A stretch of 11,072 nucleotides of DNA from Candidatus Nanopusillus sp. (GTDB lineage Archaea > Nanobdellota > Nanobdellia > Nanobdellales > Nanobdellaceae): contig DAIUEN010000018.1 of NCBI GenBank assembly GCA_036845085.1, positions 1-11,072 of the forward strand, given 5' to 3'. Each line of letters begins with the position of its first letter. Position 1 is the stretch's first letter. The position numbers and the translations under genes are program-made. Positions 319-11,072 of the stretch are shown piece by piece. The notes beneath the pieces were generated by a model. That model was given only the letters and a program-made list of their open reading frames with translations. It was not told the DNA's origin and made no database searches.

Positions 319-2085
319 TCAGGACAAAAACCACCTTAATTTGCTATCTAAACTTTTGAGTAATTTTTCATCATCTACAAAAACAATAGATAAACCTTTA
401 CTAATTCCGCCAGCATATAATCTAGAAGCTCTCCCAGACGCTTGAATATACGTTTTAACATCTACTACATTAGCGTATATATGACCATTCTCTATTTTTA
501 TAGATACATCTGGGTGATTATTTAATTTTTCTAAAATATAGGTATCCTTTATTTTTTGAGATACAATATTATAAAGGTCTCTTATCATCTTTAATAAATA
601 ACCACTAAATCCATCTAGTTCTTTATTATTTACAAAAGCATCCGAAATTAGAATCATAGCTTCTGATGATAATTTTTTTAGATTTTTATTTATATTATTA
701 ACTAATTTTCTGAGGTTTGATTTTTCATATTCGTTATCTAATATATCTATTAAAAGCTTTGATAGAGTTAATAAATCTGATATGTCTTTTTCTAAGTTAG
801 ATATATTTATTTTAATTGTTGGAATCCCTAGGAATATTACATATTTAATTCTAGTTGGTAAATCGATTCCTCTAACTAATATACCATAAGGATGTGCTAT
901 TCCTATCAAAATATTTATGTTTTTCTCAGCAAAATTTTGAATTATATCTGAAACTTCTTTTATATTACTGTGAACAAGTCCTACTTTATAACCCTTGTCT
1001 ATAAGAAAATTATATACATATTCTGCATATTCTATACCTTTATTTTTAGGAACAAATATAATAATACCATCTTTCAGAATATTTAATATTTTTAATAAAA
1101 CATTGAGTTCTTCTTCATCTTTAACTTTTACATATGCATCAATTATATTTCTCAACTTTGAAGAACTACTTCCTACTGAAAAAGATAAAAGTTCTCTATA
1201 CAATAAAGTTCTTTTACCCCTCAAAGAACCAGTAGCTGAAGACAGAATTAGAATACCTCTCTTTTTTTCTTTAATTTTTAAAAACTCTTTATAAATATTA
1301 CTATTAAAATCTAGTTTTCCAGCTAATTTCAAATCTAAAATCTCTTTTGCTAGTCTTATTTCCTCTTCTTTATATCCCAAAAGCTGCAAAGTTTTTTCTA
1401 TATTTTTAGATCCTTTAAAAAATGCATCTACATCGTCTACAAAAACTATATCGAACTCTTGGGATTTTATTTTATCAAAGGATTTTGACAAAAATTGATT
1501 AGAAATTACTAAAATGTCATAGTCTCTTTTTAATAATTTTTCTTCAAATTCTAATTTTTTCATATTGACCTTAGATAAAATTCTAATGTTCAAATTTACT
1601 TTTTTAGAAAATTTTACTAAATTATCATATGTTTGTTTTACTAGAATTCTGGTAGGTAATACTATTAAAATTTTATAATTATATTTATTTGCTAAATATA
1701 AAGAAGCTACGGAAATAAAAGTTGACTTTCCAACACCCGTAGGAGCTACTATTGAGAAGCTTTTTCTCTTTAAAATCCTTTTAAACCACATTAGCTGTAT
1801 CGACCATGGTTCAGATCCTAAAACAGATATAAAAAAGTCATAAAATGATTTAGTCTCTTGATATAACTTATAGTACTCCTCAAATTTCATCAACCTACCT
1901 TTATTTTTCAAGATACTGTAAAGATTATCATAAAAGACATCTTTTTCTTTAATTTTAGTCAAATCTGATTCCTCATCACTAGATACATCTAATTCACAAG
2001 GCAAAGAATTTACTAATCGATGAGAAGAAATATTACCTCCGCAATTAGGACATAAATTTTTTATTTTTAAATATATATCTTCCAT
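319..2085 (-). CDS. rgy: Reverse gyrase, stand-alone helicase-like (N-terminal) subunit; no topoisomerase IA domain in this gene or next to it
   Basis: 588-aa ORF. It has an N-terminal Zn-finger-like CPNCGG..x14..PC. The superfamily-2 helicase motifs appear in reverse-gyrase form: APTGVGKST (motif I), FVDDVDA (motif II), SSATG (motif III) and QASGRASR (motif VI) close to the C-terminus. The ORF ends about 40 aa after motif VI, and no topoisomerase ORF lies downstream in 1..318. Confidence 0.85.
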   Translation of the reverse strand: MEDIYLKIKNLCPNCGGNISSHRLVNSLPCELDVSSDEESDLTKIKEKDVFYDNLYSILKNKGRLMKFEEYYKLYQETKSFYDFFISVLGSEPWSIQLMWFKRILKRKSFSIVAPTGVGKSTFISVASLYLANKYNYKILIVLPTRILVKQTYDNLVKFSKKVNLNIRILSKVNMKKLEFEEKLLKRDYDILVISNQFLSKSFDKIKSQEFDIVFVDDVDAFFKGSKNIEKTLQLLGYKEEEIRLAKEILDLKLAGKLDFNSNIYKEFLKIKEKKRGILILSSATGSLRGKRTLLYRELLSFSVGSSSSKLRNIIDAYVKVKDEEELNVLLKILNILKDGIIIFVPKNKGIEYAEYVYNFLIDKGYKVGLVHSNIKEVSDIIQNFAEKNINILIGIAHPYGILVRGIDLPTRIKYVIFLGIPTIKINISNLEKDISDLLTLSKLLIDILDNEYEKSNLRKLVNNINKNLKKLSSEAMILISDAFVNNKELDGFSGYLLKMIRDLYNIVSQKIKDTYILEKLNNHPDVSIKIENGHIYANVVDVKTYIQASGRASRLYAGGISKGLSIVFVDDEKLLKSLDSKLRWFLS

Positions 2086-2762: not shown

Positions 2763-2784
2763 AATTTATTAAGATTATTCTAAA

Positions 2785-3102
2785 ATGAAAATACCAAAAG
2801 TTGTAAGTAAATATTGTCCACATTGCAACAAAAAAACAGAGCATAAAGTAATTATTGTTAAAGTAGCAAAAACAAGAACTGGTCTTGCTTGGGGGGCTAG
2901 AAGAGCAAGAGAAGGAAAAAAAGGAATCGGAAATAAAGGAAAATACAGTAAAAGACCACTAACACAAAGAAAAAGAGGAATTATAAAATCTTCTAAAGGT
3001 ATTGATCTAAGATTAGAATGCATGGTATGCAAAAAACAACACATATGGCATATAAGTGGAAGATATAAAAAAGTAGAATATTCCACATCTATAAGCAAAT
3101 GA
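2785..3102 (+). CDS. rpl44e: 50S ribosomal protein L44e (eL42)
   Basis: 105 aa and very basic. It has the start 'MKIPKVVSKYCPHCNKKTEHKV' and the second zinc-ribbon half 'LRLECMVCKKQH', which is the typical L44e CxxC...CxxC architecture and N-terminal motif. Confidence 0.9.
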   Translation: MKIPKVVSKYCPHCNKKTEHKVIIVKVAKTRTGLAWGARRAREGKKGIGNKGKYSKRPLTQRKRGIIKSSKGIDLRLECMVCKKQHIWHISGRYKKVEYSTSISK

Positions 3103-3617
3103 AAGCAAAATTTACTTTTGAAGTTACTTCTGATAAAAAAGAAATACTTCCACAAATATTCGAAAATATAGAAAAGAATATAAAAGAATTTAAATATATA
3201 AAAATACTTTCAGAAGAAAAAGGAGAACCATTAGAAAGAGAAATACAAGATCCCAATAATCCCAATGTAAAGATAAAAATTTATACCGCATATATAAATA
3301 TTTTAGCAGAACTCGAAGAGTTCGATCATTTACTAGATTTTATATTATGGTACGCTCCATCAAGAGTTGAAGTAGAAGACATAAAAGAAATAAAGATAAT
3401 TACTAAAGAAAAAGAAATAAAATATAATAAAGAAAAGGTTAATATTTTATTAAGTCAGATATCCAAAAGAATAATAGATATAAGTATACTACTATCTACT
3501 ATTATGGTACAAAATAGAATATTAGGGGAGAGATTAAAGAAATATGAACCTGATGCTGTAAAACCAATAGAGTTTAAACTGAATTTACCTACAAAAGAAA
3601 AAGATCAGCCAAAATAA
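3099..3617 (+). CDS. Hypothetical protein (172 aa, acidic/Lys-rich, Cys-free), translationally coupled to rpl44e
   Basis: Long ORF whose ATG overlaps the rpl44e stop (ATGA at 3099..3102). Its composition matches the other cytoplasmic proteins here. I recognise no family motif. Confidence 0.6.
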   Translation: MKAKFTFEVTSDKKEILPQIFENIEKNIKEFKYIKILSEEKGEPLEREIQDPNNPNVKIKIYTAYINILAELEEFDHLLDFILWYAPSRVEVEDIKEIKIITKEKEIKYNKEKVNILLSQISKRIIDISILLSTIMVQNRILGERLKKYEPDAVKPIEFKLNLPTKEKDQPK

Positions 3618-4411: not shown

Positions 4412-4594
4412 TTATTCTAAAAACTTATATGACATATCCTTTTTCATCTTTCTTCTATAATCCCCCCAACGATCTTCTGGAGAAAACTTTGGAGGAATTG
4501 GAATAAAAGTTTTAGATCCACATTTTGTACATATTTCTTTAAATGTATAATCTTTACAAATAGGACATTTTCTTATTTCTTTACTTTTCTTCAT
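4412..4594 (-). CDS. nop10: H/ACA ribonucleoprotein complex subunit Nop10
   Basis: 60 aa. It has 'IRKCPICKDYTFKEICTKCGSKT' (zinc ribbon) followed by 'PPKFSPEDRWGDYRRK', the diagnostic Nop10 'P.RFSPED.y..YRR' motif. Confidence 0.9.
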   Translation of the reverse strand: MKKSKEIRKCPICKDYTFKEICTKCGSKTFIPIPPKFSPEDRWGDYRRKMKKDMSYKFLE

Positions 4595-5348
4595 TTATTT
4601 CATAAATTAAATTTTTACTCTTAGCAGCTTCCATAAACTTTTCTAGATTCTTCTTTGCCGATTGTATATCTTTTGGATTATAACTTACATACTCTAAGAG
4701 ATAGTCTGCAGCAGCTAAATATTTAATTTTAAACCCAAACTTTTCTATTTCTTTCAAAAATTCTTTTATTTTTATAATTCCATCTGGATCCAAACTATAT
4801 ATTAATAATCTGTATCTTATTTTATATTTTTGAGGATTCAAATATTCTTTAACGTATTTCAAAAGTAAATTTATATATTTCTTTTTAATTTTATATTTAG
4901 ACAAGGCTTCTTCTCCATGTAAATATAGATTTAAAAATGCAGTATATAATTTCTCTTGAGGAATTATCTTATAAACTATTTCATCTTCAAGTTCTTTTAT
5001 ATCTATATTTTCTTTTTCAGATATTATTTTAATTATATTATACGCTTGTATTTCCCTCTTATATTCTAAAATCTTTCCTTTTGCTTTGTTTTTATCAACT
5101 CTCTTTAATGATATTATTGATAATCTATTTATAGGATCTACATCCAAAACAACACCAATGGCTTTTCTGCCTTCTTTTACCACTTCTCTGACATTTGTTA
5201 TTCTCTTTGAAGATAACTCATCTATTGGTATTACACCATAGAATCTCTCAAATTCGTCTAATTTCACTTTTACAGAAAAATCTCCAATTTCTTCTATAGT
5301 TATTATTACATAATCATTTTTTTTAGGAACGTCTTTTCTTAAGTACAT
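4581..5348 (-). CDS. eif2a: Translation initiation factor aIF2 alpha subunit
   Basis: 255 aa. The N-terminal S1-like OB fold pattern is 'PKKNDYVIITIEEIGDFSVKVKLDEF..GVIPIDELSSKRITNVREVVKEGRKAIGVVLDVDP...ISLKRV'. The helical middle and alpha-beta C-terminal region have typical length. It is adjacent to nop10, with a 14-nt overlap. Confidence 0.85.
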   Translation of the reverse strand: MYLRKDVPKKNDYVIITIEEIGDFSVKVKLDEFERFYGVIPIDELSSKRITNVREVVKEGRKAIGVVLDVDPINRLSIISLKRVDKNKAKGKILEYKREIQAYNIIKIISEKENIDIKELEDEIVYKIIPQEKLYTAFLNLYLHGEEALSKYKIKKKYINLLLKYVKEYLNPQKYKIRYRLLIYSLDPDGIIKIKEFLKEIEKFGFKIKYLAAADYLLEYVSYNPKDIQSAKKNLEKFMEAAKSKNLIYEINEEK

Positions 5349-5364
5349 TATTATTTATCAATCG

Positions 5365-6231
5365 TTAACTTTTTATGACATTTACTGATGGTAATACATA
5401 GACCGACGTTACATAATAATCAAAAGTTAACATAACAACTATATTATCCATATCAGAAACTTTACCAAAGTTCACACGTAATATATATTTGTTATCCTTA
5501 TTTATAGAGGATGTATAACTATATGTGTTGTTTATTTTTATATCGGAAGTATAGATAAAAATTTTATAATTAAAAGAAATATTTTTTACATTAAAACTAT
5601 TTAAGTTACAACTATTTAACACATTTTCTTTAGTTACATAAAAATTACTCGTATTTTGTATATTATTAATGGAAAATTCTACTACAAGGTCTACACCATT
5701 TGGAGATGGAGAAAAATAAGCTTTATTTATTGCTATAGGAGAATTTACTGTAGTGCTATTTATATTTAAATTACAAATTTTTCGACTAGATATACAACCA
5801 TTTAACATAAAAATAGATTTATATTGATAACAAAGCAAAGCATTTACACTATAAGATTGAGATGTTAATAATTCTGGTTCTTCTAAAGAAATATATCCAT
5901 CTTTGGGCAAAACTATATTGTATTCATATTTAGAATATGCAACTTCTTCGCTGTTTATACAAAAATCACCAGAATATTTAAATGCAGGATCTTGAAAAGA
6001 TAATAAACATACTTTCCAAGGCAAATTATCAGATTCTTTTATTATAAGAGATATCTGAAATGGTGTTTTCGGATATATATTATATGGATAAGATTCTGAC
6101 GGATAAACATAAAAATAATTCATATTCACGTTAGATTTCTCTGCATTATCTGAAGAAAAACAACTAAGACCAAAAATAGATAAAATGGATAGAAATAGAA
6201 AAATTGGAAAAATATATATATTACCTTTCAT
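5365..6231 (-). CDS. Orphan exported protein, putative lipoprotein (signal peptide ending in lipobox G-L-S-C24)
   Basis: 288 aa. The start 'MKGNIYIFPIFLFLSILSIFGLSC' has an n-region Lys, a hydrophobic core and a lipobox-like GLSC. The mature part is rich in Asn, Ser, Tyr and Val, and it has 6 Cys after the lipobox Cys and many N-x-S/T sequons. The start is 4 bp after the upstream ORF's stop. Confidence 0.7.
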   Translation of the reverse strand: MKGNIYIFPIFLFLSILSIFGLSCFSSDNAEKSNVNMNYFYVYPSESYPYNIYPKTPFQISLIIKESDNLPWKVCLLSFQDPAFKYSGDFCINSEEVAYSKYEYNIVLPKDGYISLEEPELLTSQSYSVNALLCYQYKSIFMLNGCISSRKICNLNINSTTVNSPIAINKAYFSPSPNGVDLVVEFSINNIQNTSNFYVTKENVLNSCNLNSFNVKNISFNYKIFIYTSDIKINNTYSYTSSINKDNKYILRVNFGKVSDMDNIVVMLTFDYYVTSVYVLPSVNVIKS

Positions 6232-6235
6232 ATAA

Positions 6236-7198
6236 CTATCTTACAGGGTTTACAGATATTGTTTTTATAATTTTGCTATAACAATCATATTCTAATTCTA
6301 CTTCTACATAACCAAGGATACCACATTGTTCTCTTGGTACATCAATACCTAGCTTTTTAACATCAATCCAACAAGAAAATGTAGCTGAACTTCCAGATAA
6401 TGAAATATATCTTTTTCCACCACTTTTTATAACATTACATCCAAAACCGTTACCTTCGTTAAATGTTCCTTTTCCAGGTATATTTAACTTTATTGAATTT
6501 ACATATACTTTTGGTACTCCATAAAAATATGCATTATAGTTATTAAAACATCCAGCAGCATCTGTAATACTTATAGAAAATGAAGTATATCCACTGGCAG
6601 CTTGGACATTCACAGTAGATTGTGGAACTACTGGAGATCCTGTAAAGTATACTGGAAAACTATAATCGCTTTTATCATATCTGGTAGTAAGTACTACAGG
6701 AACTATAAATTTAGTCTTTACTCCAGAAACATTATAAGTAAATGTTATAGTTACATCTGAAGTTATATCGGAAGTTGGCAAATCTAAAGTAAATTCACCA
6801 ATAACTCCCTGCATTGTTGCTTTTGGATCTCCCAAAATTTCTGGAATTTCTACTTCAAATCTTTTATTAGAGATAGATCCAAAATTAGATTTTACTTCTC
6901 CATATAATTTCAAAGACTCTTGTCCGGTATAAAATGTCGATGTATATGTGATTTGATATGTAAATTGTCCGCTTTCTTTTGGATTATAATATATGGGATC
7001 TGGTCCGTACAAAGATAGACTTATAGTACCAACTCTATTAGCCGCATATTCGAGAGATGGTTTTACATTAAACCTACATTCCCCTACTCCTTGTCCAGAA
7101 GATCCTGTACTACCAGGATTAGAACAGCTCATTCCAGTAGCTGCAAGAATAAACAATAAGCCAAATACTGGAATAGAATATAATACTTTTTTATCCAT
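6236..7198 (-). CDS. Orphan exported protein, putative lipoprotein (signal peptide ending in lipobox G-M-S-C25, then a Gly/Ser-rich linker)
   Basis: 320 aa. It starts 'MDKKVLYSIPVFGLLFILAATGMSC', followed by 'SNPGSTGSSGQGVGE'. The mature part is rich in Gly, Ser, Thr, Val and Tyr with 6 further Cys. I checked the codons for M23-S24-C25 directly at 7132..7124. Confidence 0.7.
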   Translation of the reverse strand: MDKKVLYSIPVFGLLFILAATGMSCSNPGSTGSSGQGVGECRFNVKPSLEYAANRVGTISLSLYGPDPIYYNPKESGQFTYQITYTSTFYTGQESLKLYGEVKSNFGSISNKRFEVEIPEILGDPKATMQGVIGEFTLDLPTSDITSDVTITFTYNVSGVKTKFIVPVVLTTRYDKSDYSFPVYFTGSPVVPQSTVNVQAASGYTSFSISITDAAGCFNNYNAYFYGVPKVYVNSIKLNIPGKGTFNEGNGFGCNVIKSGGKRYISLSGSSATFSCWIDVKKLGIDVPREQCGILGYVEVELEYDCYSKIIKTISVNPVR

Positions 7199-7220
7199 AC
7201 TTTTCTATTCGATTTATGTA

Positions 7221-7228
7221 TTTATAAA
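7221..7228 (-). promoter_or_regulatory. Candidate TATA box (palindromic TTTATAAA) for the 320-aa lipoprotein gene
   Basis: It sits -30..-23 from the minus-strand ATG at 7198, inside the 31-bp gap between the 416-aa and 320-aa ORFs. Confidence 0.35.
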
Positions 7229-7229
7229 C

Positions 7230-8480
7230 TTAGCTTCCAATATATTCAACACTTCCAGATCCTACTATTTTATAAGAATAAAGCATTGTTGAATTTATAT
7301 ATACAGTTTCATATCCTTGAAAATTACTTCCAGGGGTTATGCATATAGGTATAGCAACTATAAGTAATCTATTCTCTTTCTGCATTTTCTTTAGATATTT
7401 TTCGGATATATATATCTCACAGGAGTTTTGACTACAAGATATTTTAAATAAATCATTTCCGAAATCAAAAGAATTTGAACAACCATTACTAGATATATAA
7501 GAAATAATAACTTTATTTGGATTATATATAAATCTTACCGAGAATTTTGATATAGACTCCATATTTTGCAAACTACTTATTGAAAGTAAAATAACATCGT
7601 ATGAAGTTTCTTTTTCAAATATTAATACAGGATGACCAGATACTTTTGCGGCTCTAGCAATCTGTATATATGGTAAATTATATATTCCATAAGAAACTGC
7701 AACATCATATTTTCCAATTAATCCTAAAGATTGATACACGGTTATTCCCTTTAAATTTGCATCATAAGCTAAGTCTGAATTGACCACTAAAAAATTATAT
7801 ACAGAATATGTTTCTACGTTATTAAATATAGCTTCTAGTTTATTGTATATCTTAAAACCAGTTTCATTAACTCCTTTACATAGAGAGGCATTAATCTTAA
7901 ATTCTGGAATTGTACACCTTATATATGCTATTCCTTGAAAATTATTAAAATTTATGTTAGAAGGATCTGCAGAAGACTGATTTACAAATCCAATAGTAGA
8001 ATTTTCCGAGTAAAAACAAGAAAGAATAGGTAAACTATTGTTACAAGTGAAAGAAACTTGAAGATTATTTAGAGAAGATGGCAAATTATAGCTAAAAATA
8101 TATGAAATAATACTGGAAGTTGCAACATATGTATCATTAGATACTGTTCTAACCACACCAGGAGCTGAAGAAGATTCAGATAATAAAATATAATATCTTT
8201 TAGTTTCTTCAGAGACTTCTGTAGATTCTGTTAACATATATTTTCTGTAATAACTTTCAGGATCTGAAATGATATTATATACTGTATTTAAAGAACTATA
8301 AAAACTTTCCCATAAGCTTTTTCCACCTTGTACTACATTTTGAGCTGGAGATCTAGGACTTACAGAAACTTTACTAAGATATGATAAAATTTCCGATCCG
8401 TAAAACCACCAAATAATACCTATACCAATTAAAAGTAAAACTATAATTACTATTGTACCAGATCCTCCACCCTCCCCCAT
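7230..8480 (-). CDS. Orphan membrane-anchored or exported protein (416 aa)
   Basis: The N-terminus 'MGEGGGSG' is followed by an approximately 19-residue hydrophobic helix 'TIVIIVLLLIGIGIIWWFY'. The rest is rich in Ser, Asn, Tyr and Ile with 8 Cys and many N-x-S/T sequons. The start is 2 bp after the upstream ORF's stop. Confidence 0.65.
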   Translation of the reverse strand: MGEGGGSGTIVIIVLLLIGIGIIWWFYGSEILSYLSKVSVSPRSPAQNVVQGGKSLWESFYSSLNTVYNIISDPESYYRKYMLTESTEVSEETKRYYILLSESSSAPGVVRTVSNDTYVATSSIISYIFSYNLPSSLNNLQVSFTCNNSLPILSCFYSENSTIGFVNQSSADPSNINFNNFQGIAYIRCTIPEFKINASLCKGVNETGFKIYNKLEAIFNNVETYSVYNFLVVNSDLAYDANLKGITVYQSLGLIGKYDVAVSYGIYNLPYIQIARAAKVSGHPVLIFEKETSYDVILLSISSLQNMESISKFSVRFIYNPNKVIISYISSNGCSNSFDFGNDLFKISCSQNSCEIYISEKYLKKMQKENRLLIVAIPICITPGSNFQGYETVYINSTMLYSYKIVGSGSVEYIGS

Positions 8481-8482
8481 AT

Positions 8483-9532
8483 TTACGAAAGTATTATCTT
8501 AGATATATATAAATTTTCTCTTGGTTCTATTACTAATAGATTACTTTTGTTATTTGTACAATGTTTTATATTAAAAACATACAAATTTCTAGAATGATTT
8601 ATATTAAATATACAATTATTAACACTCACATTTCCTTCTCCATAATTTAATACAATCTGTAACAATCCATTTTCTAACTCACCAAATTGAATATAAAATA
8701 CTTTATTTGTAGTAAACAAATACATAGTAATTTTTGTATCTTGGGTAGAATATACTTGTATAATATTTTTACCTAATTTTAGATATGGTGTTATATCTAG
8801 AGGGTTATTCTGATTATTACATGACGTAGGGTTAATTATATTATCATTTAATTTTATAGTAACAATTCCTGGAAGACTAGGACAAAAATTATAATACAAG
8901 AAAACTTCACCCCCATGATAAAAATATTCATACTTTATACTTTGTGGAAAAAGAGGATAAAGATGTATGTTATATACCCTAATATATCCATCGGATATGA
9001 GGCTTGTTGGTGAAAAAATAAATTCGAGGAGATTCGTATTGTTACTATAATAATAACTTGGAATAACTATGTAATTTACTCCATCTTTGCAATCTTCATA
9101 AATTTTCATTTTATTTAGATATATCTCTAATTTTCCATTTTTACATATACTCACAAATGTAAGATTTGTTCCAGAAATATTAGAAAACGTACTAATTAAA
9201 TATTTTCTATAAACTACACCAGAAAATATATTAGACTTTCCTTCAAAATCTTGTAAGATGTATTGATTACCAGGAACAAAACTTCCTAAAGGGAATTCAT
9301 TTGCAATATAATATACACCACCATTAATATCCAATCTAATATTACCAACCTCAACAATATTTTTTTCTCGTACATTTAACTTATTAGAAATATTTATTAT
9401 GTCTGACTGATTAAACAATTCACTAGCCAGTTGCTGTTTATATGGCATAGGTAATATAAGCCAATAAACCAATATCAGTATACCCACTATTATAAAGAAT
9501 ATACCTATTGTAGCTACCTGTAACTTTTTCAT
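8483..9532 (-). CDS. Orphan membrane-anchored protein (349 aa) with three repeated Cys-pair modules
   Basis: 'MKKLQVATIGIFFIIVGILILVYWLILP' is a signal-anchor. The ectodomain has three similar segments, each with 'x-I-x-LN' and a Cys pair (C130/C148, C217/C238, C307/C325), ending in 'N-[LI]-[LI]-x-[FVI]'. It has many N-x-S/T sequons. Confidence 0.65.
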   Translation of the reverse strand: MKKLQVATIGIFFIIVGILILVYWLILPMPYKQQLASELFNQSDIINISNKLNVREKNIVEVGNIRLDINGGVYYIANEFPLGSFVPGNQYILQDFEGKSNIFSGVVYRKYLISTFSNISGTNLTFVSICKNGKLEIYLNKMKIYEDCKDGVNYIVIPSYYYSNNTNLLEFIFSPTSLISDGYIRVYNIHLYPLFPQSIKYEYFYHGGEVFLYYNFCPSLPGIVTIKLNDNIINPTSCNNQNNPLDITPYLKLGKNIIQVYSTQDTKITMYLFTTNKVFYIQFGELENGLLQIVLNYGEGNVSVNNCIFNINHSRNLYVFNIKHCTNNKSNLLVIEPRENLYISKIILS

Positions 9533-9554: not shown

Positions 9555-9562
9555 TTTATATT
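9555..9562 (-). promoter_or_regulatory. Candidate TATA-like box (AATATAAA on the minus strand) for the 349-aa gene, overlapping the Pelota stop codon
   Basis: It sits -30..-23 from the ATG at 9532. The sequence is a weak match, and AT-rich background makes this uncertain. Confidence 0.2.
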
Positions 9563-10572
9563 TTATATCTTATCTTAGCAATTACTCCAAATTTTCTTAC
9601 AAGTTCGTAATAGTTTACGTCTTCATTTACAATATATATTTCTGCATTTATTTTATCGGCTCTATCCAGTATAAATAGTAAATCTTCATAATTTTCCTTA
9701 CTTTTTAATTTTTTAAAAAATTCTTCAGAAATTAAAATATATTCAACATTATTGGATTCTAAATACTCTTTTAACTTTTCTATACCAAATATTATATATC
9801 CTTTATTTATTAAACTTATAGATTCTTCCATAATTTTATTTAGCTCTAATATTTCTACATTCTTTAACATATTATAATATTCTTTTCTCTTGATAAACTC
9901 ATATATACCATTTATTCCCCCATAAGATACTTTAAACTGAAAAATCTGAATATTTTTTATATCTATTTTTTCTTCCAGATATTTATAAAAAATTTCTGGA
10001 TAAAAAATAGGTCCTACAATACACAATATTTCTGGTTTTTCTTTCTCTATTATCTTTATATACTCAGAATAAATTTTTTTTATTTCAGAATCCCTATTTG
10101 GATCTTCTTTATTCACATATATTTCATCTTCTCTCAATATTTCTATTCTTGTACTAATGATTCCGAATGCTATAGATTTGCTATCTAAAGAAACTACATA
10201 TATTTTTTTATACTTGTTCGAAGATTTTTCTAATTCTTTAATATGAAAAGGTAAAAATTTCTTTTTTTCTAAATAAACTTTACTGCCCACTACAATATCA
10301 AATGTGTGATAGTGTCCAACTACTTCTTTACTAGCTTCTAATATTCTACCAGAAACTCTTAAAGAATCACCATATTCTGAAAATTTAACTTCTTCTACTT
10401 CAATTTTTATTTTTACTTTTATTTTTTCTTTTTCTTTTTCAAATTTTATAACTCTGTAATCTTCTCCATATAAAATGTCTCCTTTTTCTATGATTTTAAA
10501 TAAAACAAAAAGATCTCTATCTCCTTCTACTACTAATTCTACCACATTTCTATCTACGAAAGTATATTTCAT
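9556..10572 (-). CDS. pelA: Pelota (Dom34 homologue), mRNA surveillance / ribosome rescue factor
   Basis: 338 aa. The N-terminal Sm-like domain pattern is 'VELVVEGDRDLFVLFKIIEKGDILYG...LRVSGRILEASKEVVGHYHTFDIVVGSKVYLEKKKF', which is Pelota 'pE..dDlw.ly.li..GD.v......lRi.G.i......g..HT..i..g..l.i.K'. The central and C-terminal parts are eRF1-like and of the right length. Confidence 0.8.
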   Translation of the reverse strand: MKYTFVDRNVVELVVEGDRDLFVLFKIIEKGDILYGEDYRVIKFEKEKEKIKVKIKIEVEEVKFSEYGDSLRVSGRILEASKEVVGHYHTFDIVVGSKVYLEKKKFLPFHIKELEKSSNKYKKIYVVSLDSKSIAFGIISTRIEILREDEIYVNKEDPNRDSEIKKIYSEYIKIIEKEKPEILCIVGPIFYPEIFYKYLEEKIDIKNIQIFQFKVSYGGINGIYEFIKRKEYYNMLKNVEILELNKIMEESISLINKGYIIFGIEKLKEYLESNNVEYILISEEFFKKLKSKENYEDLLFILDRADKINAEIYIVNEDVNYYELVRKFGVIAKIRYKI

Positions 10573-11036
10573 AATATTATTGTCAGATAAGACAAAAATA
10601 TTGCTGGTATAAATGGTGCTCCTTCCATAACATATGCTTTTATATTATATTTTCTTGATAATTCTTTTAATAAAGCAATCTCTTGCTTACTTAAACCTAT
10701 TTCTCCACTAAAAAGCTTATTGTAAAATATGAAATATAAAATTGGCGGAATTATAACTAAAAAATTAAAAAAGTTTGCTTTTATGAATAATAGGGGGAAA
10801 ATAAAAATTATAGAAGTAAGTATGATATTTTTCCAAGTCAGTTTATCTTTATGATAGATATAATATCGATTTTCTTTTTCTTCAATATTATAGAATTTTT
10901 CTAGTAACTCTTTGTCTTCTTTATAAATATTTCCATCTATAACAAAATAGTCAATCCAGTCACCTTCTACTAATAAATTAACTTCTCTTTCAAATACAAG
11001 TTTACTTTTATATTTATTCTCAAAAGACTTATACAT
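10569..11036 (-). CDS. Hypothetical small membrane protein (155 aa), translationally coupled to Pelota
   Basis: A soluble N-terminal region of about 65 aa is followed by two adjacent hydrophobic helices ('IILTSIIFIFPLLFI', 'FLVIIPPILYFIFY') and a C-terminal hydrophobic segment ('APFIPAIFLSYLTIIL'). Its stop overlaps the Pelota start (ATGA at 10572..10569). Confidence 0.55.
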   Translation of the reverse strand: MYKSFENKYKSKLVFEREVNLLVEGDWIDYFVIDGNIYKEDKELLEKFYNIEEKENRYYIYHKDKLTWKNIILTSIIFIFPLLFIKANFFNFLVIIPPILYFIFYNKLFSGEIGLSKQEIALLKELSRKYNIKAYVMEGAPFIPAIFLSYLTIIL

Positions 11037-11072
11037 AAATATAGAAACATATACGATAACTATACTTAGCAG

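Follow-up and report, generated by a model that had tools for sequence, protein, structure and literature searches.

A conserved four-gene block encoding putative membrane-tethered envelope proteins in Nanopusillaceae-type nanoarchaea

In the Sulfolobales, the space between the membrane and the S-layer is organized by SlaB, a glycosylated protein that is rich in β-sandwich domains, contains a coiled coil and is held in the membrane by a single transmembrane (TM) anchor at its C terminus. Anchored lectin-like recognition factors have been proposed for Nanobdella and Nanohalobium (bioRxiv 10.1101/2023.10.27.564410): MJ1_0179 of Nanobdella aerobiophila, and LC1Nh_0399-0401 and 0423 of Nanohalobium constans, each combine an N-terminal TM segment with a β-sandwich ectodomain of lectin type (ConA/legume-lectin-like plus Ig-like), and were identified by structure prediction only, with their function inferred. 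Also comparable are the lipoproteins of the AliA/AliB pathway of Haloferax volcanii, and the Epd (system 1) locus of Methanococcus maripaludis, which encodes galactose-binding-domain and adhesin-like proteins with class III signal peptides. In DPANN archaea, both lipoproteins and the lipidation enzyme AliA are reportedly widespread (PMC12462473). Here, we describe a block of four genes, named P1-P4, that lies on the minus strand between the Pelota and aIF2-alpha genes at positions 5365-9532 of an 11,072-nucleotide stretch from Candidatus Nanopusillus sp. (GenBank assembly GCA_036845085.1, contig DAIUEN010000018.1; this whole stretch is referred to below as the window). On balance, we favour the interpretation that P1-P4 form a lineage-specific, membrane-tethered envelope module of Nanopusillaceae-type nanoarchaea, with an envelope-organizing or glycan-binding role.

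The likeness to SlaB is one of functional analogy, as a putative membrane-to-S-layer organizer: P1 and P2 are anchored at the N terminus instead, there is no match in sequence or specific fold, and no S-layer gene is adjacent. P1 shares with MJ1_0179 and the LC1Nh proteins a predicted architecture of N-terminal TM helix and lectin-type β-sandwich ectodomain, but it is galactose-binding-domain-like, no sequence relationship was found, and a fixed four-gene block with two lipoproteins is undescribed for those proteins. P3 and P4 resemble AliA/AliB-pathway lipoproteins in their positively charged n-region, hydrophobic h-region, small residue at position -1 and invariant Cys at +1; unlike known lipobox lipoproteins, the window proteins have Gly at -3, and the P3 and P4 mature domains fall in no known lipoprotein family. 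P1 and P2 can be likened to the Epd proteins, although the present locus contains no ATPase, platform protein or major pilin gene, P1 lacks a canonical class III motif, and Pelota separates P1 from the gene for an A24-like peptidase.

Layout, composition and conservation of the block

The members of the block are as follows:

8483..9532, minus strand: P1, open reading frame (ORF) of 349 aa; N-terminal signal anchor and predicted all-β ectodomain
7230..8480, minus strand: P2, ORF of 416 aa; TM anchor, linker, helical stalk and β-sandwich domains, as predicted
6236..7198, minus strand: P3, ORF of 320 aa; putative lipobox lipoprotein precursor
5365..6231, minus strand: P4, ORF of 288 aa; second putative lipobox lipoprotein precursor

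Only 2, 31 and 4 bp separate P1 from P2, P2 from P3 and P3 from P4, respectively, so that the packing and the ORF lengths given in a first-pass annotation, made from the letters alone, are exact; P1 starts 23 bp after the Pelota stop codon, and aIF2-alpha starts 16 bp after that of P4. By hydropathy, each protein has a single hydrophobic segment, located at the extreme N terminus, and this analysis, together with the orthologue alignments, bears out the earlier assignment of two signal anchors (P1 and P2) and two lipobox signal peptides (P3 and P4). The composition also diverges from that of the neighbours, as had been noted: Lys and Glu together account for 10.1-10.6% of P1-P4 versus 18-28.5% of every neighbouring protein, and Asn, Ser, Thr, Tyr, Gly and Val for 44-50% versus 20-39%. 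The Cys counts of P1, P2, P3 and P4 are 6, 8, 7 and 7, becoming 6, 8, 6 and 6 once the lipobox Cys is set aside, versus none in GINS, the 172-aa ORF, PAC2 and aIF2a, and one in Pelota. These recomputed features exceed chance because orthologues from other genomes keep them: Cys columns are invariant in the alignments, P1 has six Cys in 6/6 sequences and P2 eight in 8/9 orthologues, and P3 and P4 sequences with intact N termini have the lipobox Cys plus four or six others. Since the hydrophobic N termini, the scarcity of Lys and Glu, and the even, conserved Cys all point the same way, P1-P4 are probably extracytoplasmic, membrane-tethered and disulfide-bonded. The gene list of the cultured Nanopusillus acidilobi includes a membrane-anchored protein-disulfide isomerase (Wurch et al. 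2016 supplement).

The first-pass annotation had further pointed to numerous N-x-S/T sequons as a sign of N-glycosylation. The sequons are indeed present (8, 7, 1 and 4 in P1, P2, P3 and P4, respectively), but the expectation from composition-shuffled sequences is 4.5, 6.2, 3.2 and 5.6, and the orthologues of P1-P4 show no enrichment over shuffled composition either. Their number follows from the N/S/T-rich composition, with P3 having only one, and sequon enrichment was rejected as an argument for glycosylation. In P1, the sequons at N41 and N123 recur at the same position in 4/6 orthologues.

An exhaustive phmmer search with P2 against 1.84 billion cluster representatives (clusters at 50% identity) returned 12 clusters besides the window's own, with expect (E) values from 5e-79 to 2e-7; all are unnamed or 'hypothetical', and those with a source name come from Nanopusillaceae metagenome-assembled genomes (MAGs). 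The contigs encoding these P2 relatives (loci L001 and L003-L011) were compared with the window. The shared gene order runs A24-like, Pelota, P1, P2, P3, P4, aIF2a, Nop10, PAC2, and continues with an MJ0538-family gene, L44e, GINS and the helicase half of reverse gyrase. It is kept in full wherever the contig suffices (L001, L003/L004, L005/L006 and L011), which was one of the checks proposed with the first-pass annotation, and the shorter contigs L007-L010 carry fragments consistent with the same order. Even the divergent L009, with a GC content of 38%, encodes a C-terminal fragment of P1 followed by P2, P3, P4 and aIF2a. P1-P4 always occur side by side in this one order, and consecutive genes are either barely spaced or have stop and start codons that overlap. 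The window is a complete MAG contig with a GC content of ~25%, and the block resembles the remainder of the contig in this respect.

Orthologue lengths are narrowly distributed (346-351 aa for P1, 408-425 aa for the single-TM forms of P2, 314-345 aa for P3 and 282-297 aa for P4), at 23-38% identity to the window proteins. Identity to the window counterpart in these loci is 48-78% for Pelota, aIF2a, Nop10 and L44e, and 30-38% for GINS and the MJ0538-family protein; P1-P4 are therefore fast-evolving, but not outliers, given that GINS and MJ0538 are similarly divergent. Between the two strains represented by L003 and L004 there are 43 differences in 21 kb, of which six fall inside the block, too few for a test; there is no excess of single-nucleotide polymorphisms (SNPs) in the block between them, the numbers being tiny. 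A scan of genome contigs recovered only the L001 contig again, and both metagenome-contig scans gave no matches. Word-indexed searching, which is insensitive, found a single relative with P1, only four already known sequences with a P1 profile, and the window's own proteins only with a concatenated P3 and P4 profile.

The same neighbourhood is found in the cultured N. acidilobi, according to Supplementary Data 1 of Wurch et al. 2016: Nps_02030 to Nps_02060 span reverse gyrase to eIF-2alpha; Nps_02065, 02070 and 02075 are 'uncharacterized' proteins with one TM domain and no arCOG (orthologues Nst1_409-411); Nps_02080 is Pelota; and Nps_02085 is an uncharacterized membrane protein with seven TM domains. 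By synteny and annotation alone, and not by sequence, the block apparently corresponds to Nps_02065-02075 and Nst1_409-411. It is, on the same synteny, apparently present in published genomes, annotated there as uncharacterized only. A literature search on the locus tags of both N. acidilobi and Nst1 turned up no paper that discusses these genes, and the fixed four-gene arrangement is not discussed in the literature searched.

Predicted architecture of P1-P4

Searches of Pfam, NCBIfam, PHROGs and PADLOC with P1-P4 and every orthologue gave no meaningful match, and profile searches of the four proteins against PDB sequences returned nothing under E = 0.1. In particular, no S-layer, pilin, archaellin or solute-binding family is matched in Pfam, NCBIfam or the PDB sequences by the four proteins or their orthologues, in agreement with the first-pass annotation, which had recognized none of these. 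Paralogy within the block was considered and rejected, as hhalign profile-profile comparison gives matches only between the signal peptides of P3 and P4. P1-P4 thus appear to belong to no described sequence family and to represent four mutually unrelated ones. The earlier description of the proteins as orphans holds insofar as no described family contains them; it does not hold insofar as the block apparently occurs in published genomes and the fold class of P1 can be recognized. We would regard P1-P4 as new families of ordinary archaeal surface-protein types, arranged in a conserved module.

Two features of P1 were delineated:

9449..9517, minus strand: P1 TM helix, ~aa 6-28 (hydropathy), preceded by a conserved (K/R)-x-Q
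8687..9196, minus strand: P1 internal repeats A (aa 113-195) and B (aa 196-282), by hhalign

The best-conserved part of P1 is its TM and juxtamembrane region, with a mean pairwise identity of 55% over aa 8-34 versus 29-42% in segments of the ectodomain, which suggests that this region has a specific partner within the membrane and is more than a passive anchor. Six invariant Cys fall into three pairs (130/148, 217/238 and 307/325). Repeats A and B match each other with an hhalign probability of 87% (E = 4e-6, 38 columns), and both contain the motif G..x-I-y-i-N...C......I-x-x-YL..G.N.I as well as a Cys pair; for the third unit (aa 283-349), hhalign gave no significant repeat match. The strand motif '...I-T-x-YL-x-x-G-x-N-x-I...' of P1 is probably shared with the sugar-binding domains of GH2 and GH35 enzymes.

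The AlphaFold model of P1, computed from a 5-sequence alignment, has a mean predicted local distance difference test score (pLDDT) of 74.6 and a predicted template modelling score (pTM) of 0.50, and consists of a TM helix (residues 3-26) and an all-β ectodomain. Foldseek matches it, with probability ~1.0, to the tandem β-sandwich domains of GH35 β-galactosidases (8qqh, 4e8d, 3d3a and 4mad) and, again at ~1.0, to α-L-rhamnosidase 3w5n, the jelly rolls of BcsB, the SID1 ectodomain and PNGase. The GH35, 3w5n and BcsB domains are the best structural matches; in contrast to these, P1 has no catalytic domain, is membrane-anchored and carries one probable disulfide per repeat. A galactose-binding-domain-like Pfam model gives weak, sub-threshold matches in 2/7 P1 family members, and these matches and the internal repeat are independent hints that agree with a jelly-roll fold. 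We conclude from the model that P1 is likely to be a type-II-anchored protein with tandem galactose-binding-domain-like jelly rolls, a fold of the lectin or carbohydrate-binding module (CBM) type.

The anchor of P2 was placed by hydropathy, in agreement with the model:

8400..8456, minus strand: P2 TM helix, ~aa 9-27 (model helix 7-37)

The AlphaFold model of P2 (13-sequence alignment; pLDDT 83.4, pTM 0.75) comprises the TM helix (residues 7-37), a disordered linker, three short helices (45-93) and a β-rich region (97-415). The helical stalk bears the most recognizable motif of the family, SFYxSL..V..I(S/T)NPxxY, and 6/8 Cys are invariant or nearly invariant. Against the PDB and BFVD, Foldseek finds generic multi-β-sandwich proteins only, with TM-scores (template modelling scores) ≤0.25, among them the CupB6 tip adhesin, RbmA, the Bap B domain, SdrG and transglutaminase barrels; these matches would provide fold-class information only. 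Of 13 P2 sequences, four have a multi-TM N terminus; among the relatives, there are forms with two or three TM segments and forms in which a polytopic segment is combined with a cytoplasmic extension of 225 aa, and the occurrence of such polytopic N termini suggests that the P2 ectodomain is meant to remain on the membrane. In P0017 (L008:166-2118), the P2 ectodomain is joined to a helical, K/E-rich cytoplasmic region of ~170 aa in which no recognizable domain was found, and no P1 gene is visible upstream on the short L008 contig. Extra N-terminal TM segments are also carried by P0018, P0014 and P0015.

For P3 and P4, orthologue alignments delimit the following signal peptides:

7124..7198, minus strand: P3 signal peptide, lipobox G-M-S-C (Cys25)
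6160..6231, minus strand: P4 signal peptide, lipobox G-L-S-C (Cys24)

The lipobox definition tested was Leu, Val or Ile at -3, Ala, Ser, Thr, Val or Ile at -2, Gly, Ala or Ser at -1, and Cys at +1. In all 13 intact P3 and P4 N termini, the Cys closes the hydrophobic region and is followed by an S/G/P/N-rich linker, and the residue at -1 is small (13/13; Gly, Ala or Ser, and Thr once). The lipobox Cys of P3 is present in 7/7 orthologues, once the start codon in L009 is corrected, a correction that gives both P3 and P4 of this locus canonical lipoboxes. The lipoboxes of the window are non-canonical at -3; canonical ones among the orthologues include L-S-G-C and L-L-G-C (L005, L009), and F-L-G-C and A-A-G-C were counted likewise. 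Both proteins are thus predicted, from their sequences, to be lipobox lipoproteins. Beyond the signal peptide, P3 has an S/G/P-rich linker after Cys25 and the conserved motifs PVY(F/Y)xxSPV(V/I)P and DAxGCF, and P4 has the motifs W..CL.SF and G..C...(LP..G.I.L).

Within a genome, the lipoboxes of P3 and P4 are alike:

Window: P3 GMSC, P4 GLSC
L003: P3 FSSC, P4 FSSC
L005: P3 LLGC, P4 FLGC
L011: P3 AAGC, P4 AAGC
L009: P3 LSGC, P4 LSGC

Over positions -5 to -1, same-genome pairs of P3 and P4 have 19 matches, whereas 265 derangements yield 5.2 on average and at most 10. In L003, 51/60 bases of the two signal-peptide coding sequences are identical (L003:11263-11340 versus L003:12236-12310), suggesting a recent gene conversion event. 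Different codons specify the shared lipobox residues in L005, L009 and L011, and these codon differences argue for selection at the protein level by a shared, lineage-specific processing machinery. This co-variation provides an unusually clean sequence-only signature of lipobox processing in Nanoarchaeota.

Flanking genes

The genes on either side of the block are as follows:

10569..11072, minus strand: C-terminal half of a divergent A24-like membrane protein; the reading frame is cut off by the contig end and shares 4 bp with Pelota
9556..10572, minus strand: Pelota, upstream flank (Pfam eRF1_1/2/3 and synteny)
4581..5348, minus strand: aIF2-alpha, downstream flank (Pfam EIF_2_alpha and synteny)
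4412-4594, minus strand: Nop10-like Zn-ribbon gene of 60 aa, sharing 14 bp with the 3' end of aIF2-alpha

From the A24-like gene through PAC2, all genes are co-directional and no gap exceeds 31 bp; because of this, the string looks like one long transcription unit that mixes translation and envelope genes. Full-length orthologues of the A24-like protein (L001:4087-5088, L003:6937-7917 and L005:4088-5089; 326-333 aa) match the whole domain of PF01478 (Peptidase_A24) with E values from 2e-4 to 1.6e-3, below the gathering score, contain a conserved AIGD motif, and also give weak matches to Arc_PepC. The position of the gene is that of Nps_02085, and the N. acidilobi table has no annotated prepilin peptidase despite the presence of archaellins; the A24-like gene may encode the class III signal peptidase that these nanoarchaea otherwise seem to lack. 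Upstream of it, other loci encode a conserved coiled-coil protein of ~385-400 aa (L003:5319-6470, L001:2465-3622 and L005:2329-3534) with weak matches to NPV_P10 and FlaC_arch-type coiled-coil models; this protein corresponds to Nps_02095, a 'chromosome segregation ATPase' of rank 44 in the N. acidilobi proteome.

On the other side of the block, the 588-aa ORF (319-2085, minus strand) contains the reverse-gyrase zinc finger, DEAD and Helicase_C domains and lacks a topoisomerase domain, which identifies it by sequence as the helicase half of a split reverse gyrase. A split of the same kind is reported for N. equitans, Nst1 and N. acidilobi (Wurch et al. 2016 supplement), and it supports a hyperthermophilic nanoarchaeal origin; together with the Nanopusillaceae homologues and the N. 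acidilobi gene order, it agrees with the earlier attribution of the stretch to a thermophilic nanoarchaeote. The 172-aa ORF (3099-3617, plus strand) overlaps L44e by 4 bp and the convergent PAC2 gene by 13 bp; it has no Pfam match itself, its syntenic orthologues carry precomputed matches to PF27325 (MJ0538 family), and its N. acidilobi counterpart is arCOG05037. A 99-aa ORF (6993-7292, plus strand) antisense to P3 and P2, and a 126-aa ORF (2775-3155, minus strand) antisense to L44e, are most likely spurious products of AT-rich sequence. Scanning the window for Rfam families and tRNAs gave no match.

Candidate functions of the block

For the envelope module, the following sequence of events may be envisaged. 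P1-P4 would be exported by Sec, with intradomain disulfides forming by oxidation, and the lipobox Cys of P3 and P4 would be lipid-modified by the archaeal lipoprotein pathway. The four proteins could then assemble into a hetero-oligomer between the membrane and the S-layer, in which the conserved TM helix of P1 would make a specific intramembrane contact. Judging from their fold, the P1 jelly rolls might bind glycan, either of the cell's own glycosylated S-layer or envelope, or of the host's, and host-surface binding may be a specialization of a constitutive envelope role.

Such a constitutive role is ranked above dedicated host attachment because the genes are single-copy, have one-to-one orthologues of fixed length, lie within a housekeeping string and show no SNP excess. 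The alternative, in which the block is devoted to host attachment and P1 is a lectin for the S-layer glycans of the crenarchaeal host, is in our judgement improbable, yet it deserves to be taken seriously. The predicted lectin/CBM-type fold of P1 and the occurrence of bacterial adhesins (CupB6 tip adhesin, Bap, SdrG and RbmA) among the best Foldseek matches of P2 are in its favour, although the latter reflects generic β-sandwich similarity at TM-scores ≤0.25. Moreover, N. acidilobi and its host show different surface sugars (PMC4935971), external hypothetical proteins of Nanoarchaeota have a raised density of non-synonymous SNPs (PMC6142677), and the anchored recognition factors proposed for Nanobdella and Nanohalobium offer a precedent. 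P1-P4 do evolve faster than the flanking translation genes; however, their divergence is not above that of GINS or MJ0538 in the same string, and no SNP excess separates the two strains, tiny as the numbers are. Orthology is one-to-one, and length and position stay fixed in lineages whose hosts presumably differ; neither domain shuffling nor variation in copy number occurs among the lineages compared, and the exhaustive P2 search found only 12 other clusters, the named ones all from Nanopusillaceae MAGs. The orthology, the fixed length and position, and the lack of SNP excess fit a core envelope component at least as well as they fit host contact. A bolder version, in which P1-P4 are the core of the nanoarchaeal contact apparatus, a hetero-complex with P1 locking onto host S-layer glycans, seems to us rather unlikely; if true, the P1 TM helix and the lipoproteins would couple binding to a membrane-membrane junction supplying the symbiont with lipids and metabolites.

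The A24-like gene raises another alternative, namely that P1, and perhaps P2, are accessory or minor-pilin-like components of a type IV filament, cleaved by this peptidase, whose gene is two genes upstream of P1, and then displayed on a pilus or at its base. In all genomes examined, the peptidase gene belongs to this co-directional string, and, as in pilins, the N terminus of P1, with (K/R)-x-Q preceding ~22 hydrophobic residues, is the most conserved part of the protein; similarly, K/R followed by G, A or S precedes the hydrophobic stretch in at least seven of 13 P2 N termini (eight by a looser count). Nevertheless, this reading appears unlikely, more so than the contact apparatus. A class III signal peptide calls for K/R at -2 and for G or A, rarely S, at -1, right ahead of ~20 hydrophobic residues. 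In P1, K/R occupies -2 in 5/5 sequences, but the residue at -1 is L, S, Y, S or N, never G or A, such that a FlaFind-type motif fails, and the N terminus of the window P2 (MGEGGGSG...) lacks a basic residue. Neither class III signal-peptide models nor N-terminal models of pilins are matched, at E ≤ 1 for the window or E ≤ 0.05 for family members, and no secretion ATPase or platform protein is encoded within 10 kb either side of the block in L003 and L005, where the A24-like peptidase stands alone. Furthermore, the multi-TM or polytopic relatives of P2 would not be extractable as pilins, the helix in the P1 and P2 models leads into a disordered linker and is not packed on a globular domain, and P3 and P4 have lipobox rather than class III signals; the adjacency itself may be incidental, as an A24 peptidase is needed for archaellins anyway. 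Lipid-anchored binding proteins are the usual solute receptors of archaea and Gram-positive bacteria, so P3 and P4, with or without P1, might instead be substrate-binding proteins that take up metabolites or glycans of the host for an uptake system encoded elsewhere. The carbohydrate-binding-type fold predicted for P1 would suit such a nutrient-capture module, and Nanoarchaeota rely on the host for most metabolites (PMC4935971). We consider it very unlikely, however, as P3 and P4 have no similarity to solute-binding families in Pfam, NCBIfam or the PDB, no permease or ATPase gene is present in any locus examined, and their Cys-rich, N/S/T/Y-rich composition is atypical of α/β periplasmic binding proteins. 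Finally, the want of family matches and a composition unlike that of the neighbours could be explained by spurious ORFs or a mobile or viral insertion. This is scarcely credible, and conservation effectively refutes it: in at least six lineages, gene order, length and Cys positions persist at ~30% identity, the GC content of the block is like that of the contig, the block is embedded in a conserved housekeeping string, and there is no PHROG, PADLOC or BFVD-specific match, the BFVD search with P2 giving generic matches only.

Several points weigh against the envelope module itself. Glycan binding by P1 is inferred from fold class only, and jelly rolls of this class are found in non-sugar-binding proteins too. 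The P1 model is of moderate quality, with its pTM of 0.50 and 4/5 models at ~62 pLDDT, and the TM-scores to its Foldseek matches are ≤0.26 at 7-14% sequence identity; low global scores are as expected, however, since the relative orientation of the domains differs. Co-transcription with housekeeping genes is frequent in compact genomes and is uninformative on function. The corresponding interval of N. acidilobi and Nst1 lists three genes, whereas all loci read here have four, so that one gene is either missing, merged or unannotated there. Nps_02065-02075 were, moreover, all undetected in the N. acidilobi shotgun proteome (Wurch et al. 2016), although this says little because Pelota, aIF2a and L44E were likewise undetected.

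The block bears on how nanoarchaea attach to their hosts and organize their envelopes, and Wurch et al. call for the characterization of 'conserved predicted membrane proteins'. Among the single-TM hypothetical proteins of these organisms, the block stands out as a conserved unit of four new families, with a predicted lectin-type fold and two putative lipoproteins. By synteny, it is apparently present in the cultivable N. acidilobi-Acidilobus system, and is thus directly testable. Even if its role proves to be purely structural, the block would add four protein families and a candidate organizer of the S-layer or pseudoperiplasm.

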